Positions 130-6,099 of a stretch of 64,000 nucleotides of DNA are shown here, piece by piece. Origin of the DNA: Escherichia coli (GTDB taxonomy: Bacteria; Pseudomonadota; Gammaproteobacteria; Enterobacterales; Enterobacteriaceae); the NCBI RefSeq assembly GCF_024298765.1, contig NZ_CP101210.1; one strand, 5' to 3'. The position numbers and the translations under genes were made by a program. Numbering within the stretch: the stretch's first letter is position 1; each line of letters starts with the position of its first letter. Below the pieces are notes generated by a model. It worked only from the letters and a program-made list of their open reading frames with translations, had not been told where the DNA came from and ran no database searches.

Positions 130-190
130 TGTTAGATATTTTAGACGTTACTAGATTAAAAAGCATTAGTTCAGGAGTGAATTGACATTC

Positions 191-433
191 TCATTTTTCA
201 TGGCACAGGGTAGATCTGGCGTGGTTGTCCGCTTTGTGCCAACAGCGGACGTTACTAACGAAACTGTGAGTTAAAAACGGGAGCTGGTCACCTCCATCCC
301 GCGAAATGGAATTCAAAAATGCCCTCATGTACGGTACTTCTAGTCTGATGTGAGCATTTTCGTGGATTTTTTCGAGCCACTCCAACGAATGATTACATTC
401 AGTTTCGGGCACTAAAACGTCATAAATCCGCAA
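191..433 (-). CDS. hypothetical protein (80 aa)
   Basis: ORF in the six-frame track; no recognisable family; may be spurious. Confidence 0.2.
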   Translation of the reverse strand: MRIYDVLVPETECNHSLEWLEKIHENAHIRLEVPYMRAFLNSISRDGGDQLPFLTHSFVSNVRCWHKADNHARSTLCHEK

Positions 434-662
434 GTTGAGGAGTAGCGATCAGCCAATTGGTTAAAAAACAGCTTTAATTCCCTTTTTCAAGCAGGCTCCT
501 TGTCGCACGTCTGGTGCATCCAATTCATTTCAGTTACCCTGATGCCATACTGGCACGGACTAGCTCTCTTAATTGGCGCTGGTTTGTTAACCTTGTCCGC
601 TGTCGGGTCTTTGTAAGTTGTAATTCCTAAACTAGCATAATTTTATTATAAGGCCTCTTACT

Positions 663-1688
663 ATGCACATTTTATCTGTTTCAAAAAAGGAAGTTGGAAG
701 AGCTGGGGATAGATTAGTTTCTCAGTTTGGTACAGGTGAAAAATATAAAGAGGAAGATGTACAAATTCTTCATGAGTGGAGGATGTTGCATTTATATCCT
801 TTAAGTAAAATACAATTTTATATGGAAAGAGAGGCTATTTCCTTAAACAAAAATGCGTTACTATCCTCTAGAATTAAGAGGATGCCTTCCATTGTTACTA
901 AGCTTTCTAGATTTCCTGATATGAAGTTAAATAAGATGCAGGATCTTGGTGGGTGCCGGGCTATTTTAAATAATCTGGATCAAGTGTATGATTTAGTTAA
1001 TAAAATAAAATCATCTAAATTCTCACATGAACTAGTTAGAATGGATGATTACATGATAGACGTGAAAGATTCTGGTTATAGAAGCTTTCATATGGTCTAT
1101 TCATTCCAAAATAAAAAATTTCCATCTTTAAATGGGTTGCGCATTGAAATGCAAATAAGAACAGCTATTCAACATAGCTGGGCTACAGCAGTTGAAATGG
1201 TTGGTTTGTTTCGAAAGGAATCATTGAAATCTGGTTTTGGTGATGCAAGATGGCTTAGGTTTTTTGAATTGGTATCAGAGCTTTTTTATAAACTTGAGTA
1301 TGAAAAAGAACCATCTGGGAGTTATATAAAAATATCAGAAGAATTAAGTTATTTATCCGTCGAGTTGAATGTTTTCGATATATTAGCTGCTTACAATGCC
1401 GTAGTTAGCCATATTGAGGGTAGCAAAAAATATGATAAAGGACTTTGCATAATTGTTGTTGATACCATAAAGCGGAATATAAATATAAAGAGCTTCGAAA
1501 ATCACAATCATGCGAAGGCGGCAGAAGCTTATGTCGAGTCTGAAAAATACTGCGCGGAAAATAAAGGCTGTGAAGTGGCTATGGTTTCTGTTAGTTCAAT
1601 TAGTGAATTAAAAAATGCATATCCTGCTTACTTTTTAGATACGAAAACTTTTTTAAATTATCTCAGTAGGTATGTTTTTATAAAATAA
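663..1688 (+). CDS. RelA/SpoT-domain nucleotidyltransferase (small alarmone synthetase-like, toxSAS/CapRel-like) with fused C-terminal domain of unknown function
   Basis: 341-aa ORF. Synthetase-fold motifs visible in the translation: RIKRMPSIVTK (RxKxxxSxxxK), DLGGCRAI (DxxGxR), GYRSFHMVY (compare GYQSLH of Rel enzymes), EMQIRTAIQHSWA (E-x-Q-I-R-T...H). About 140 aa of C-terminal extension without a recognised motif. Visibly AT-rich relative to flanks. Confidence 0.7.
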   Translation: MHILSVSKKEVGRAGDRLVSQFGTGEKYKEEDVQILHEWRMLHLYPLSKIQFYMEREAISLNKNALLSSRIKRMPSIVTKLSRFPDMKLNKMQDLGGCRAILNNLDQVYDLVNKIKSSKFSHELVRMDDYMIDVKDSGYRSFHMVYSFQNKKFPSLNGLRIEMQIRTAIQHSWATAVEMVGLFRKESLKSGFGDARWLRFFELVSELFYKLEYEKEPSGSYIKISEELSYLSVELNVFDILAAYNAVVSHIEGSKKYDKGLCIIVVDTIKRNINIKSFENHNHAKAAEAYVESEKYCAENKGCEVAMVSVSSISELKNAYPAYFLDTKTFLNYLSRYVFIK

Positions 1689-2121
1689 AAAATGTTATCT
1701 GGAGTGGTCTGAATTCTACTAACTTAGTTTTTTCAGACCGCTTCTGACCACAATGGCCTGTGAGGTTCTGCTGCTAGTCAACATAAAATAACAAAGCCGG
1801 CAGGTGGTGGTTGTTGTAAAGTTATTCAATGACATTCATGGAGGCTTAAGCGAATTATTTGTCCCTGGTCGGTATGGTGGCAACAGCTTGTTGCGAGAAT
1901 TTGGCTAATTTGGACTGACTTCCGCTCCTTGCTCAAAGCGGACTAGAAGGTTAGCTTGTGTCGGACTTTGCGTATTAAAAGAAGTGCTGGTGGTGACTAG
2001 TGGTTGAGCCCCATTTCCACAGAAAAAATCAGAGAAACTATACCCAATAGTTGTATTGAATCACTGACGAGACAGCCTCATATTCATCAGGACTGGTGTA
2101 CGTCCAATACAGGAGGTTGTG

Positions 2122-2211
2122 GTGCTGGTTCTCAAATGTGCGCTGGCTATTACGGCTGTAATGGCGATTTATTGTCTTGCTATTGTTCTTATGGATCGCC
2201 TTTCTGACTGA
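2122..2211 (+). CDS. small hydrophobic peptide (29 aa, GTG start), candidate membrane/toxin-like peptide
   Basis: AGGAGG at 2111-2116, 5 nt upstream of GTG at 2122; translation VLVLKCALAITAVMAIYCLAIVLMDRLSD, stop TGA 2209-2211; one predicted transmembrane helix. Too short for the ORF track. Confidence 0.3.
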   Translation: MLVLKCALAITAVMAIYCLAIVLMDRLSD

Positions 2212-2422
2212 TTTCATATTGGCGAGGTAAAGGTAGTTAAGTAGAATGGCTGCGGGTGCTTGAGGCTATCTGCCTCGGGCATGAACACCAAAGGCAGATA
2301 GAGAAAAGCCCCAGTTAACATTACGCGTCCTGCAAGACGCTTAACATTAATCTGAGGCCAATTTCATGCTAGACACATGTAGGTTAGCCTCTTACGTGCC
2401 GGAAGGCAAGGAGAAGCAGGCT

Positions 2423-2578
2423 ATGAAGCAGCAAAAGGCGATGTTAATCGCCCTGATCGTCATCTGTTTAACCGTCATAGTGACGGCACTGGTAACGAGG
2501 AAAGACCTCTGCGAGGTACGAATCCGAACCGGCCAGACGGAGGTCGCTGTCTTCACAGCTTACGAACCTGAGGAGTAA
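2423..2578 (+). CDS. hokD: Hok-family type I toxin HokD (RelF)
   Basis: Translation MKQQKAMLIALIVICLTVIVTALVTRKDLCEVRIRTGQTEVAVFTAYEPEE matches HokD as I recall it; the track ORF 2366..2578 extends 19 codons upstream in frame. Confidence 0.8.
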   Translation: MKQQKAMLIALIVICLTVIVTALVTRKDLCEVRIRTGQTEVAVFTAYEPEE

Positions 2579-2646
2579 GAGACCCGGCGAGGGAGAAATC
2601 CCTCGCCACCTCTGATGTGGCAGGCATCCTCAACGCACCCGCACTT

Positions 2647-2678
2647 AACCCGCTTCGGCGGGTTTTTGTTTTTATTTT
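2647..2678 (+). terminator. intrinsic terminator downstream of hokD
   Basis: GC hairpin AACCCGC-TTCG-GCGGGTT followed by a T-run. Confidence 0.6.
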
Positions 2679-5340: not shown

Positions 5341-5883
5341 TGCTTTAAATGGGGCAATAGAGATATTGAATCTCATCCCGGGATAAACATTGGCAGTTGA
5401 AGGTCCACGCGAACCATTTATCCGGCAAAATTCCACGCGTAATCCTGTGGTAATTTCTTCTGCATCTCGAAGATTGAGAGCTGAAACGTGAAGCTGGGCA
5501 TCGATACGCCATCGGATGGGAATATAAGACCTTTGCTGCTTTTGTAGTCAAAGTTTTTGACAATTCCTGTCATTTTAGGGGACAGAAAAACTCCTTAATA
5601 CTGATAACCTGGTGCACCATACACACGTTCCTGGAGAAAACTACTTTTTTGATAGGGTTGAAGGTGGCTGGATGTCTAAAATAAACATTGCTTCATATGT
5701 TCAACTATGAGTTAATGACTGCGTCGGTTTGAAGAACAGACGATATACGAAGTAGTTTACTAAAGCAGTTCTCATTTCAGGTGTTATTCACTTATTCCTT
5801 CTTTGAGTCTCTCCAATTAAGTACGAAGTCGTTTCTGTTATGCAAACCATTTATGCCGAAAGGCTCAAGTTAAGGAATGTAGA

Positions 5884-6099
5884 ATGTCAAATAAAATGAC
5901 TGGTTTAGTAAAATGGTTTAACGCTGATAAAGGTTTCGGCTTTATTTCTCCTGTTGATGGTAGTAAAGATGTGTTTGTGCATTTTTCTGCGATTCAGAAT
6001 GATAATTATCGAACCTTATTTGAAGGTCAAAAGGTTACCTTCTCTATAGAGAGTGGTGCTAAAGGTCCTGCAGCAGTAAATGTCATCATTACTGATTAA
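5884..6099 (+). CDS. cspB: cold-shock protein CspB-like
   Basis: 71 aa [64 protein letters not shown]...; RNP-1-like KGFGFI motif; long upstream leader typical of csp genes. Confidence 0.8.

Follow-up and report, generated by a model that had tools for sequence, protein, structure and literature searches.

A conserved 29-codon gene for a predicted single-helix membrane peptide upstream of hok/sok at the edge of a defence-cargo hotspot in Escherichia coli prophages

Results and Discussion

The small gene and its neighbours

The window analysed is a stretch of 64,000 nt from E. coli contig NZ_CP101210.1, and the features at the locus are listed in Table 1. A small open reading frame (ORF) lies between a gene for a RelA/SpoT-domain protein (663-1688) and hok (2423-2578), where an earlier note on this DNA had placed it. 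Direct reading of the sequence and the ORF list both bear out the note's description of an AGGAGG at 2111-2116, a 5-nt spacer, a GTG at 2122 and 29 codons with a stop. The 29 sense codons are VLVLKCALAITAVMAIYCLAIVLMDRLSD and the TGA is at 2209-2211. The ORF list gives a 30-aa version that begins with a GTG at 2119, one codon 5′ of the GTG at 2122. However most homologues have no start codon at position 2119, and thus 2122 is the start of the small gene.

Table 1. Coordinates of the features around the small gene (positions in the window)
Feature	Position	Strand	Remarks
Variable cargo, 341-aa RelA/SpoT-domain protein (“toxSAS” of the earlier note)	663..1688	+	Pfam RelA_SpoT, E=4e-18
Conserved non-coding block left of the promoter	1921..2055		some lineages only; 1-nt and 14-nt indels
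Putative sigma-70 promoter	2056..2084	+	TTGAAT (2056-2061), 17 nt, CATATT (2079-2084); 8/12 consensus match; predicted start near 2091
Shine-Dalgarno AGGAGG	2111..2116	+	5 nt 5′ of GTG 2122; spacer TTGTG, 2117-2121
Small gene	2122..2211	+	GTG start, 29 codons, TGA stop; product MLVLKCALAITAVMAIYCLAIVLMDRLSD, one predicted transmembrane helix
hok promoter	2219..2247	+	TTGGCG-17-TAGAAT; begins 8 nt past the stop of the small gene
hok mRNA leader / sok antisense region	2254..2428	+	Rfam RF01794, 117 bits, E=4.9e-27
mok (from 2366) and hok (2423-2578) frames	2366..2578	+	ORF list; Pfam HOK_GEF E=3e-23; hokD in PGAP
hok terminator	about 2647..2674	+	first intrinsic-terminator-like site 3′ of the small gene

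The plus strand of the window has 12 AGGAGG sequences, and five of these are followed 4–9 nt on by a start codon that opens an ORF of at least 25 codons. Apart from the small gene, the four other ORFs of this kind are genes of 232-700 aa. Elsewhere in the window an AGGAGG with a start codon marks only real genes, and the small ORF is beyond chance expectation.

Annotation and distribution

The earlier note had called the ORF unannotated. This is correct for the RefSeq record of this genome and for nearly all others, and RefSeq annotation of the small gene in E. coli genomes is almost never found; but it does not hold database-wide. PGAP calls the gene in strain fEC.1 as WP_000960667.1 (RefSeq “hypothetical protein”), and GenBank has entries for the same protein, ACT39199.1 from REL606 and ACT43394.1 from BL21(DE3), with the source names “membrane protein” and “conserved hypothetical protein [E. 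coli B str. REL606]”; hypothetical or “membrane protein” is also found in others. A Prokka call on pWR100, CP037924_00134, belongs to the same protein family; the pWR100 ORF is at NZ_CP037924 90908-90997, on the minus strand. These four proteins are 83-90% identical to the product of the small gene and their ORF boundaries are equal. The database entries are automatic predictions with no name, family or function attached, and the literature searched yielded no mention of the peptide sequence or of the accessions.

Of 5426 complete E. coli genomes, 1954 (about 36%) contain the region. Strains ATCC 8739, 55989 and 104 are examples with the full unit, and mEp460 and Tritos have the gene as well. 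Queries for the protein-level searches were the 42-aa E. albertii annotation, P0072 and P0076. Among 1.84 billion representative proteins a profile search gave 17 matches only, all from the same narrow family, and a scan of species-representative genomes gave three loci, one in E. albertii and the others on two short MAG contigs. The small-gene family is confined to Escherichia and Shigella.

The O157- and SCU-172-type prophages have truncated remnants in which the last 6-9 codons of the small gene are left. In addition, the small gene is absent from more than half of the genomes that have the same hok type. On this pattern of occurrence the small gene is dispensable.

Evidence for coding and selection

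Conservation was followed in 22 copies chosen by DNA similarity and in 80 IMG/VR loci. Comparison of the reading frame across relatives had been proposed with the original observation, and the frame, the start position and the stop are retained in 21 of the 22 copies and in every one of the 80 IMG/VR loci. In intact copies the start codon is always at the position equivalent to 2122, with GTG and ATG alternating. Almost all sampled intact homologues have a Shine-Dalgarno sequence, i.e., AGGAGG, AGGAGA, GGGAGG, TGGAGG or GGGGG, and one IMG/VR locus (L050) shows ATGAGG. The motif is lost (AGAAAG) only in the frameshifted copy of GF3-3, the one decayed (pseudogene) copy, where the −35, the −10, the Shine-Dalgarno sequence and the frame are all lost together. 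Indels within the frame are multiples of three, consisting of two independent 3-nt deletions and one 3-nt insertion, and an 11-nt deletion has its sole occurrence at the stop codon. Indels of 1, 2, 11 and 14 nt are found in the flanks of the small gene.

The 48 substitutions in the small-gene frame are distributed as 23 synonymous, 25 nonsynonymous and 0 stop changes, with a null mean of 13 synonymous changes (P=0.0002); these statistics rest on about 20 haplotypes, because the family, limited to Escherichia and Shigella, is narrow and young. The remaining five frames have P values of at least 0.02 and none displays a comparable synonymous excess. Prophage copies have dN/dS ratios of 0.13-0.62, and the copy on the Shigella plasmid has 0.20. 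In the 200 nt upstream no frame carries a coding signal, and 1-nt and 14-nt indels occur; a coding potential of this upstream block was rejected on these grounds. As judged from these comparisons, positions 2122-2211 are shown to be a real, selected protein-coding gene for a predicted 29-residue peptide.

It is improbable that the small ORF is non-functional and hitch-hikes with the flank of a recombination-prone hotspot, its conservation reflecting recent common ancestry. The family is indeed young and taxonomically confined, many copies are more than 90% identical, the O157- and SCU-172-type prophages have recombination breakpoints inside the ORF, and one copy is a pseudogene. However the synonymous excess is specific to one frame, whereas the adjacent 200 nt have no frame bias and do carry out-of-frame indels. 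The ORF indels, by comparison, are in frame, and the GTG/ATG switch takes place at a single position. In addition, the copy on the Shigella virulence plasmid (pINV) has diverged like its flanks (77%), yet it has a dN/dS of 0.20 and no gaps. There is very little probability that the real gene is instead an overlapping frame, either the 67-aa plus-strand ORF at 2004-2207 or a 59-aa minus-strand ORF at 2038-2217. Both are open in the window, the minus-strand ORF is called in the annotation of phage HannyBb, and the plus-strand frame is open up to 97 codons in some loci. However the 67-aa frame is shortened to 22-32 codons in loci L008 and L007, and the minus-strand frame to 21-22 codons in L012 and L015. 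The 67-aa frame (forward frame 2) has 10 synonymous changes versus 12.7 expected, i.e., no synonymous excess, and its upstream part has no coding signal. For the three minus-strand frames P is 0.87, 0.46 and 0.02, compared to P=0.0002 for the small-gene frame, the value of 0.02 being the weak by-product that is expected of an antisense frame. Thus the 67-aa ORF, which according to the ORF list does lie in a different frame as the earlier note said, is not the gene.

Predicted peptide and family searches

AlphaFold models the peptide as a single helix from residues 2 to 29 (pLDDT 92.5). The GRAVY value is 1.74, and the Hessa sum is −2.78 kcal/mol over a 19-residue core (residues 6-24). These values support the single transmembrane helix that had been read from the composition alone, and the model shows the product of the small gene as a single hydrophobic alpha-helix whose length suffices to cross the inner membrane. 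The C-terminal half of the peptide is the most conserved, with I16, Y17, C18, L19, L23, M24 and the [D/E]RLSD tail nearly invariant. Variable positions recur at helical spacing, with a conservation moment that is weak (P=0.04).

Searches of the peptide against Pfam, NCBIfam, PHROGs and PADLOC gave nothing meaningful, with no Pfam match at E<=10, and BLASTP against Hok produced no alignment. A degenerate hok duplicate was rejected on the basis of these Pfam and BLASTP results. A lipoprotein was also rejected: residue −1 is Lys, and Cys6 is not invariant, with Gly at this place on pINV as well as in four divergent members, and Tyr in one.

The prophage hotspot

The small gene is found directly upstream of hok/sok in 87 of 92 loci, with the spacing fixed, and the most divergent members are included. 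Its stop is 8 nt 5′ of the hok −35 and 43 nt 5′ of the 5′ end of the hok mRNA. On the other side the content is variable. The 341-aa cargo protein of the window is the PADLOC candidate defence system PDC-S33, matched at full length (E=5e-119), and genes other than the RelA/SpoT cargo occupy the same position in other loci. Cargo of the hotspot includes retron-type reverse transcriptases, AbiU/AIPR, SIR2, toxSAS and several candidate defence systems. The small-gene unit is thus shown to be the conserved right edge of a defence-cargo hotspot in Qin/mEp460-like lambdoid prophages. The proposal that the ORF shares one cassette with the toxSAS gene has to be given up, since toxSAS is interchangeable cargo and the small ORF is the conserved right flank, linked to hok. 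Nothing relevant to a described hotspot at this position, or to a link between icsP and hok, was found in the literature searched.

Linkage to hok is not a constant. In I3-type loci the homology stops right after the stop of the small gene and a convergent DUF1971 gene replaces hok, and on pINV the small-gene unit is intact upstream of icsP with hok deleted. The promoter-like hexamers, the consensus Shine-Dalgarno sequence and the ORF are thereby shown to form an independent unit that can persist without hok.

Upstream region and transcription

Both hexamers of the putative promoter (TTGAAK-17-CATATT) and their 17-nt spacing are kept across at least four unrelated spacer/upstream sequences, with a consensus match that is weak. 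In strain I3 the promoter reads TTGAAT-17-TATATT, a 9/12 match. The −35 is absent in about 12 of 99 loci, and BL21(DE3) retains the Shine-Dalgarno sequence and the ORF only; microhomology at the BL21(DE3) deletion junction is unsupported by the sequence. The dRNA-seq table for S. flexneri M90T gives no start site on pWR100 at the position equivalent to the predicted promoter, and on the same strand the closest ones lie 321 nt upstream and at icsP (PMC7132871 Table S3).

The start of homology on the left side varies by locus and is at about 1921, 2042, 2056 or 2079. The −10, the Shine-Dalgarno sequence and the ORF are nearly always included, the exceptions being BL21(DE3) and the truncated O157- and SCU-172-type remnants. 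A boundary at about 1921 is seen in mEp460, Evi, Tritos, 55989 and I3. The non-coding block, which holds an inverted repeat AACTAT-ACCCA-ATAGTT (2036-2052), is missing from the HannyBb, KK05, L012 and L046 types.

RNA folds were compared with shuffled sequences for 2092-2254 (plus strand, z=0.16), 1921-2121 (plus strand, z=0.41) and 1921-2215 (minus strand, z=0.13), and none is more stable than the shuffles. In an Rfam search over the ORF nothing reaches the gathering score, the only match being a weak one to the sok model on the minus strand at 2170-2312 (E=0.24; 20.4 bits, where the gathering score is 59). These Rfam results and fold z-scores led us to reject a structured RNA or sRNA on either strand. 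The prophage Pas sRNAs (bioRxiv 10.64898/2026.05.13.724894) are unrelated to the small-gene region. A scan for antisense promoters found no conserved minus-strand site among nine divergent loci, a consensus scan being of a kind that may miss a weak or trans-encoded RNA. The search for an antisense RNA suggested in the earlier note has turned up no conserved promoter and no Rfam match at the gathering score.

No convincing terminator of the small gene's own is present between its stop and hok, so a small-gene transcript would run on into hok. A hairpin at 2146-2165, inside the ORF, was rejected as a terminator: it is weak, with three GC pairs, and is not conserved.

Comparison with known systems

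Hok/Gef (PF01848) with Sok resembles the small peptide in being a small, single-helix, inner-membrane protein, encoded on the plus strand of the same prophage segment 300 nt apart. However there is no sequence similarity between them, and the small peptide has no periplasmic Cys-containing domain and ends 5 residues past the helix. The hok locus moreover has an overlapping mok-like frame, an antisense RNA signal, a long folded leader and a fold-back 3′ element, all of which the small gene lacks. TisB and ZorO (29 aa each), DinQ, ShoB, IbsC and LdrD are similar in length and, like the small peptide, have a hydrophobic helix with short polar ends. In these toxins the 5′ UTR is long and structured, the ribosome-binding site is sequestered and there is a dedicated sRNA gene, whereas for the small gene none of the three was found.

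HK97 gp15 and T4 Imm are small phage membrane proteins that block superinfection. Proteins of the AcrZ, MgtS, MgrB and SgrT type are small inner-membrane regulatory proteins (reviewed in PMC12648545). Both groups share with the predicted small peptide a single transmembrane helix, a size of about 30-50 residues and the lack of an enzymatic domain. Regulator-like features of the small peptide are conserved residues that gather towards one end, with a weak preference for one face of the helix, and an accessory prophage site beside defence cargo. It has no sequence relationship to AcrZ, MgtS, MgrB, SgrT, HK97 gp15 or T4 Imm.

Possible functions of the peptide

The small ORF is a selected gene and part of an independent unit at the hotspot edge, and the evidence taken as a whole inclines us to the reading that it probably encodes a moron-type accessory inner-membrane protein and not a sok-type killer. 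Points against this reading are the weak promoter match, the loci that lack the −35, the reduced copy of BL21(DE3), the missing start site on pWR100, the dispensability of the gene and the narrowness of its family. Lysogens would make the peptide at a low level from its own weak putative promoter, and after induction the level would rise by way of rightward early phage transcription. The conserved C-terminal half (IYCL..LM[D/E]RLSD) may provide helix-helix or interface contacts with a membrane partner. Such a moron might, for example, serve in phage exclusion or modulate a membrane protein of the host or of a phage, rather than act as a killer controlled by a sok-type antisense RNA.

A type I toxin had been one of the readings offered in the earlier note, and it finds no positive support here, i.e., no conserved antisense promoter, no fold beyond shuffles and no family match. 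The modulator that the note named beside it is a reasonable candidate. Any small hydrophobic peptide can be toxic if over-produced, and thus a toxin role keeps some probability, though the findings do not support it. In its fullest form this explanation, which we regard as unlikely, has the peptide as a second membrane-depolarising toxin (type I, or a helper of lysis or abortive infection) that is silent in lysogens, is expressed by early phage read-through, and kills or lyses together with Hok. Size and composition are like those of TisB, ZorO, Ibs and ShoB; the linkage to hok is tight and at a fixed distance, in the most divergent members too; and the slot is rich in defence genes. The lack of a start site at the predicted promoter of the Shigella copy is compatible with expression by read-through only, and induction turns on a prophage hokW-sokW locus that hastens the release of phage (PMC8621323). 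However the consensus Shine-Dalgarno sequence is exposed, whereas type I toxin mRNAs usually sequester their ribosome-binding sites, and this counts against such a toxin. RNA structure beyond shuffles is missing on either strand, as is similarity to Hok or any toxin family. Promoter-like hexamers are conserved upstream, which would be lethal with an uncontrolled toxin, and intact copies of the gene are retained on pINV and in I3-type loci, where hok is missing. A somewhat smaller likelihood is given to the peptide being a partner of hok/sok or of the defence slot, as a membrane co-factor or immunity-like modulator that would adjust killing by Hok after induction, or as a minimal exclusion factor, or having an independent activity that would explain its retention on pINV near icsP. 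Quite doubtful is a cis-acting upstream ORF, in which translation itself matters, for Rho-free read-through into hok or for folding of a 5′-extended hok mRNA, and the peptide is irrelevant. The short distances from the stop to the hok −35 and mRNA 5′ end, the fixed spacing and the missing terminator are in keeping with a cis-acting ORF; however selection is on the amino-acid sequence, beyond a mere open frame, the ORF is retained where hok is absent, and an attenuator-like structure was not found. A leader peptide or attenuator was likewise rejected, there being no structure beyond shuffles and the ORF persisting without the downstream gene.

Small membrane proteins are systematically missed by annotation, and here a gene that about 36% of complete E. 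coli genomes carry, the laboratory strains BL21(DE3), REL606 and ATCC 8739 among them, is dropped almost everywhere by current RefSeq annotation. As the hotspot carries defence cargo with the small ORF as its conserved right border, the slot can usefully be mined with the ORF as an anchor. If the accessory membrane protein proposed here does modulate membrane integrity, phage exclusion or Hok activity, a textbook toxin-antitoxin locus would gain an added component. The constant site upstream of hok/sok and the hok-free survival on the Shigella plasmid make the gene a cheap and well-defined target for small-protein work. The copy on the Shigella/EIEC virulence plasmid is situated inside the regulatory region upstream of icsP.

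Coding evidence for a small gene upstream of hok

The ribosome-binding site, start and stop that the earlier note proposed upstream of hok are read directly from the window. AGGAGG is followed, after 5 nt, by GTG, and the 29 sense codons up to TGA translate as VLVLKCALAITAVMAIYCLAIVLMDRLSD. A mechanical ORF listing puts the start one codon upstream, at GTG 2119; many homologues have TAT, ATC, GTC or GCC there, and position 2122 is GTG or ATG in every one. AGGAGG occurs 12 times on the window + strand, five times with a start codon 4-9 nt on and at least 25 codons, and the four such ORFs besides the small ORF are genes of 232-700 aa. Thus the pattern is rare in the window and otherwise marks genes, and the signal of the small ORF is no common chance pattern there.

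Positions of the small ORF and of neighbouring features (window coordinates unless an accession or locus is given)
Feature	Position	Strand	Remarks
Cargo hotspot	130-2056		between DUF977 gene and small ORF
toxSAS gene	663-1688		341 aa; PDC-S33 match, E=5e-119
Inverted repeat AACTAT-ACCCA-ATAGTT	2036-2052		perfect
Putative promoter TTGAAT-17-CATATT	2056-2061 and 2079-2084	+	weak match, 8/12
Shine-Dalgarno AGGAGG	2111-2116	+
Small ORF	2122-2211	+	GTG 2122, TGA 2209-2211
sok model, weak match	2170-2312	-	Rfam, 20.4 bits against gathering 59, E=0.24
hok promoter TTGGCG-17-TAGAAT	2219-2247
hok leader/sok region	2254-2428		Rfam RF01794, 117 bits
mok	from 2366
hok	2423-2578		Pfam HOK_GEF, E=3e-23
isrK-like match, sub-threshold	2587-2668		Rfam, 25.7 bits, E=0.017
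hok terminator	2647-2664
cspA-type thermoregulator leader	5723-6000		Rfam, 125 bits; cut off by end of searched range
pWR100 small ORF (S. flexneri M90T)	L104 4001-4090 = NZ_CP037924.1 90908-90997	-

Homologous DNA was taken from DNA similarity in complete E. coli genomes and phages (24 loci retrieved), from peptide patterns (80 loci in IMG/VR, 3 in species-representative genomes) and from the loci of divergent proteins obtained by profile search. Because they were chosen with the peptide, the IMG/VR loci are biased to intact small ORFs; the DNA-picked set is free of this bias. Conservation of the frame across E. coli, which the earlier note named as a check, is borne out in that set: the ORF is intact in 21 of the 22 copies spanning the region, with 28-35 codons and a common start position. 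The sole broken copy, in strain GF3-3 (L111 375-550), has mutated -35, -10 and SD sequences and a 2-nt deletion shifting the frame; it is the only decayed copy seen, and all these defects are found in one copy.

The commonest peptide variant is encoded by at least nine distinct DNA sequences (20 nucleotide haplotypes). Indels within the ORF are two independent 3-nt deletions (in the KK05 prophage type and strain 41), a 3-nt insertion (locus L101) and, in one copy, an 11-nt deletion that takes away just the stop codon, so that the frame runs six codons further; the flanks have indels of 1, 2, 11 and 14 nt. In a substitution test each variant allele was counted once, the null being the same base changes re-placed at random. 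For some 20 haplotypes, possibly with a common recombination history and from a young and narrow family, the candidate frame shows 23 synonymous changes out of 48 and no stops (null mean 13; P=0.0002), with pairwise dN/dS of 0.13-0.62. The other five frames show no comparable synonymous excess, and frame bias is absent in the 200 nt upstream of the ORF (P=0.2-0.7). We conclude that 2122-2211 is very probably a protein-coding gene under purifying selection.

Two rival frames were rejected. The 67-aa + strand frame, to which the earlier note had rightly preferred the small ORF, is shortened to 22-32 codons in two lineages and lacks a synonymous excess. The minus-strand frame annotated in phage HannyBb is shortened to 21-22 codons in two other lineages.

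Linkage to hok and the adjoining cargo hotspot

Over its first 8.7 kb the window has the same sequence as a Qin/mEp460-like lambdoid prophage in E. coli strain 104, in which the order is Cro/CI, YdaT, replication protein, DUF977, the RelA/SpoT-domain protein (the toxSAS gene), 730 unannotated bases, hokD, rem, a hypothetical gene, ydfU and ydfT (Q). No part of the hok/sok locus is missing, and by its promoter coordinates the small ORF stops 8 nt short of the hok -35 hexamer. The hok terminator region has a weak isrK-like match, and a cspA-type leader precedes cspB.

In 87 of 92 assessable loci hok follows the small ORF at a fixed distance, the start-to-start distance being 298-302 nt in 86 loci and 290 nt in the remaining one, which has the 11-nt deletion. 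In two further loci hok is cut by an insertion, and in three a convergent DUF1971 gene replaces it; two more of the latter kind were found later. MLAALKGFVAILAVVAIYCLVVVLMDRLSD and ...MEGALAVVAVVGVYCLVVFLMDRLGN, which diverge most within the family, keep this place too: DUF977 and cargo precede them and hok follows directly. The comparison shows the SD and ORF to be an autonomous unit that travels with hok/sok and is able to outlive it. In the O157- and SCU-172-type prophages the last 6-9 codons are all that remains of the ORF.

In loci L018 and L033 inserted DNA breaks the hok frame at its very start, some 300 nt past the small ORF, and the hok leader and small ORF remain intact. Inactivation of chromosomal hok loci by insertions of a similar kind is known. 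Locus L102 has a second short hydrophobic ORF (2771-2854; MNWPEAFAITGVAMAIAFLVYVICRWG, 27 aa) with its own AGGAGG and ATG, which overlaps a DUF551 gene at that gene's end and is closely followed by a divergent family member and by hok.

The DNA to the left varies strongly among prophages. The toxSAS gene of the window has a RelA_SpoT domain and a full-length match to the PADLOC candidate single-gene defence system PDC-S33. Elsewhere the same slot holds genes for SIR2, DUF2326, phospholipase D, methyltransferase, acetyltransferase, QueH, HAD hydrolase, AbiU/AIPR, a retron-type RT-Toprim, a PD-T7-3-like protein, PDC-S15 (FRG domain), PDC-S39 and DUF5677. Thus, with a variable left side and a constant small ORF, the latter is the first conserved element right of a defence-cargo hotspot. 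The single accessory cassette with the toxSAS gene suggested by the earlier note has to be given up, since that gene is one interchangeable cargo in a place where other loci carry other genes. In BL21(DE3) (L010 1704-2117, NC_012971.2) the slot is "empty": a deletion puts the SD and small ORF straight after the 3′ part of DUF977. The annotated DUF977 CDS therefore overlaps the start of the ORF by 40 nt, and the promoter-like hexamers are missing. A literature search found no paper on this particular hotspot and none mentioning PDC-S33.

Expression signals

Transcripts from the putative promoter upstream of the SD would have a 5′ UTR of about 30 nt. Lineages with unrelated spacer and upstream DNA share both hexamers and the distance between them, which is the footprint that a promoter would be expected to leave, and the promoter probably belongs to the autonomous unit. 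About 12 of 99 loci have TCTCAT where the -35 would be. The most divergent loci are without this promoter, and the family members there appear to be co-transcribed with the gene upstream. A perfect inverted repeat 3 nt upstream of the putative -35 is conserved in lineages having the long upstream block and could be a regulator-binding site.

No terminator is found between the small ORF and hok. An antisense search by consensus scan gave no promoter-like site conserved on the minus strand, and neither the predicted mRNA nor the upstream block nor the full minus strand folds more stably than its shuffles (z = 0.16, 0.41 and 0.13). Over the small ORF no Rfam family reaches its gathering score; the only hit is the weak minus-strand sok match.

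A copy on the Shigella virulence plasmid

In a tblastn search of plasmids an intact small ORF, 79% identical, is found on pINV of S. flexneri, S. sonnei, S. boydii, S. dysenteriae and EIEC, in 135 plasmids with mutual identity of at least 99%. It has an ATG start, an AGGAGG SD and the product MLVLKGTLAIAAVMTIYCLIVVLMERFSD, and retains the promoter-like hexamers. The homologous fragment corresponds to window 2025-2306 (77% identity) and ends about 55 nt into the hok leader; hok is thus absent. The ORF has diverged as much as its flanks, yet it is gap-free, with dN/dS of 0.20. On pWR100 it is 260-350 nt upstream of icsP, and the M90T genome paper lists it as the Prokka call CP037924_00134 (PMC7132871, supplementary file 7). 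Thus, with an intact small gene and a hok-leader remnant, part of the icsP upstream region comes from the hok flank of a lambdoid prophage.

The nearest pWR100 dRNA-seq start sites on the same strand are 90709 and 90726 (both at icsP), and 91318, which is 321 nt upstream of the ORF; the table has none near 91028, where the putative promoter would be expected to fire (PMC7132871). These data argue against strong promoter activity, on pINV at least.

The predicted product and its possible role

The composition of a single transmembrane helix, as claimed in the earlier note, is supported by a GRAVY of 1.74, and AlphaFold predicts one helix over residues 2-29 (pLDDT 92.5). Residues 6-24 (CALAITAVMAIYCLAIVLM) have a Hessa sum of -2.78 kcal/mol. 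Among 15 peptide variants V13, Y17 and C18 are invariant, and L8, A9, I10, I16, L19, L23, M24 and the tail [D/E]-R-L-S-D nearly so. The variable positions 3, 7, 11, 14 and 20-22 follow the periodicity of a helix (conservation moment P=0.04), and conservation is higher in the C-terminal than in the N-terminal half. The membrane orientation is not fixed by the end charges. At position 6, four divergent members and the pINV copy have Gly and one has Tyr instead of Cys, and the residue before it is Lys; a lipoprotein identity was therefore rejected. Taken together, the analysis shows a selected gene for a single-helix hydrophobic peptide.

The likeness to type I toxins in the earlier note stands for size and hydrophobicity only: the peptide fails the Hok/Gef profile, and the consensus scan and predicted folds gave no clear sign of an antisense RNA or a folded mRNA. 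Small transmembrane regulators and phage exclusion proteins are alike in architecture and genomic position, but none of them is related to the peptide in sequence. We would class it as a new, so far uncharacterised family of small membrane proteins from prophages.

The peptide would insert in the inner membrane, where its conserved interface and tail may contact another membrane component. Exclusion or modulation, or some other accessory role that does not kill the cell, is somewhat favoured, because the RBS is consensus and unshielded, the promoter-like element is conserved and no antitoxin-type control was found; a killing peptide at such expression would be impossible to maintain. The main alternative, which we consider unlikely, is a killer or lysis helper made only by read-through from the early phage promoter. 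The invariable neighbourhood of hok would agree with it, as would the activation of prophage hokW reported upon induction (PMC8621323). The frame-specific substitution pattern conflicts with a hitch-hiker without function, making this quite improbable. Against a purely cis-acting upstream ORF stand selection at the amino-acid level and the survival of the small ORF where hok is gone, and this reading is similarly improbable.

Distribution and annotation

The 141-nt small-ORF region is matched in 1954 of 5426 complete E. coli genomes, 1880 of the matches covering at least 80% of it; the hok-leader type is matched in 4368. In searches of 5.8 billion clustered proteins and of 1.84 billion representatives the relatives found are all from E. 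coli or E. albertii. A literature search on the peptide sequence and accessions found no paper, and the family has so far been in databases solely as automatic "hypothetical" or "membrane protein" calls, e.g. ACT39199.1 (REL606) and ACT43394.1 (BL21(DE3)) in GenBank. PGAP hardly ever annotates the ORF ("none" in 58 of the 60 matches listed); in strain fEC.1 PGAP does call it (WP_000960667.1, "hypothetical protein"). In loci L002, L006 and L010 the RefSeq locus tags skip exactly one between the cargo or DUF977 gene and hokD (e.g. DDV95_RS16595 to RS16605, ECD_RS08065 to RS08055), which may be the trace of a feature annotated there at one time and since withdrawn.
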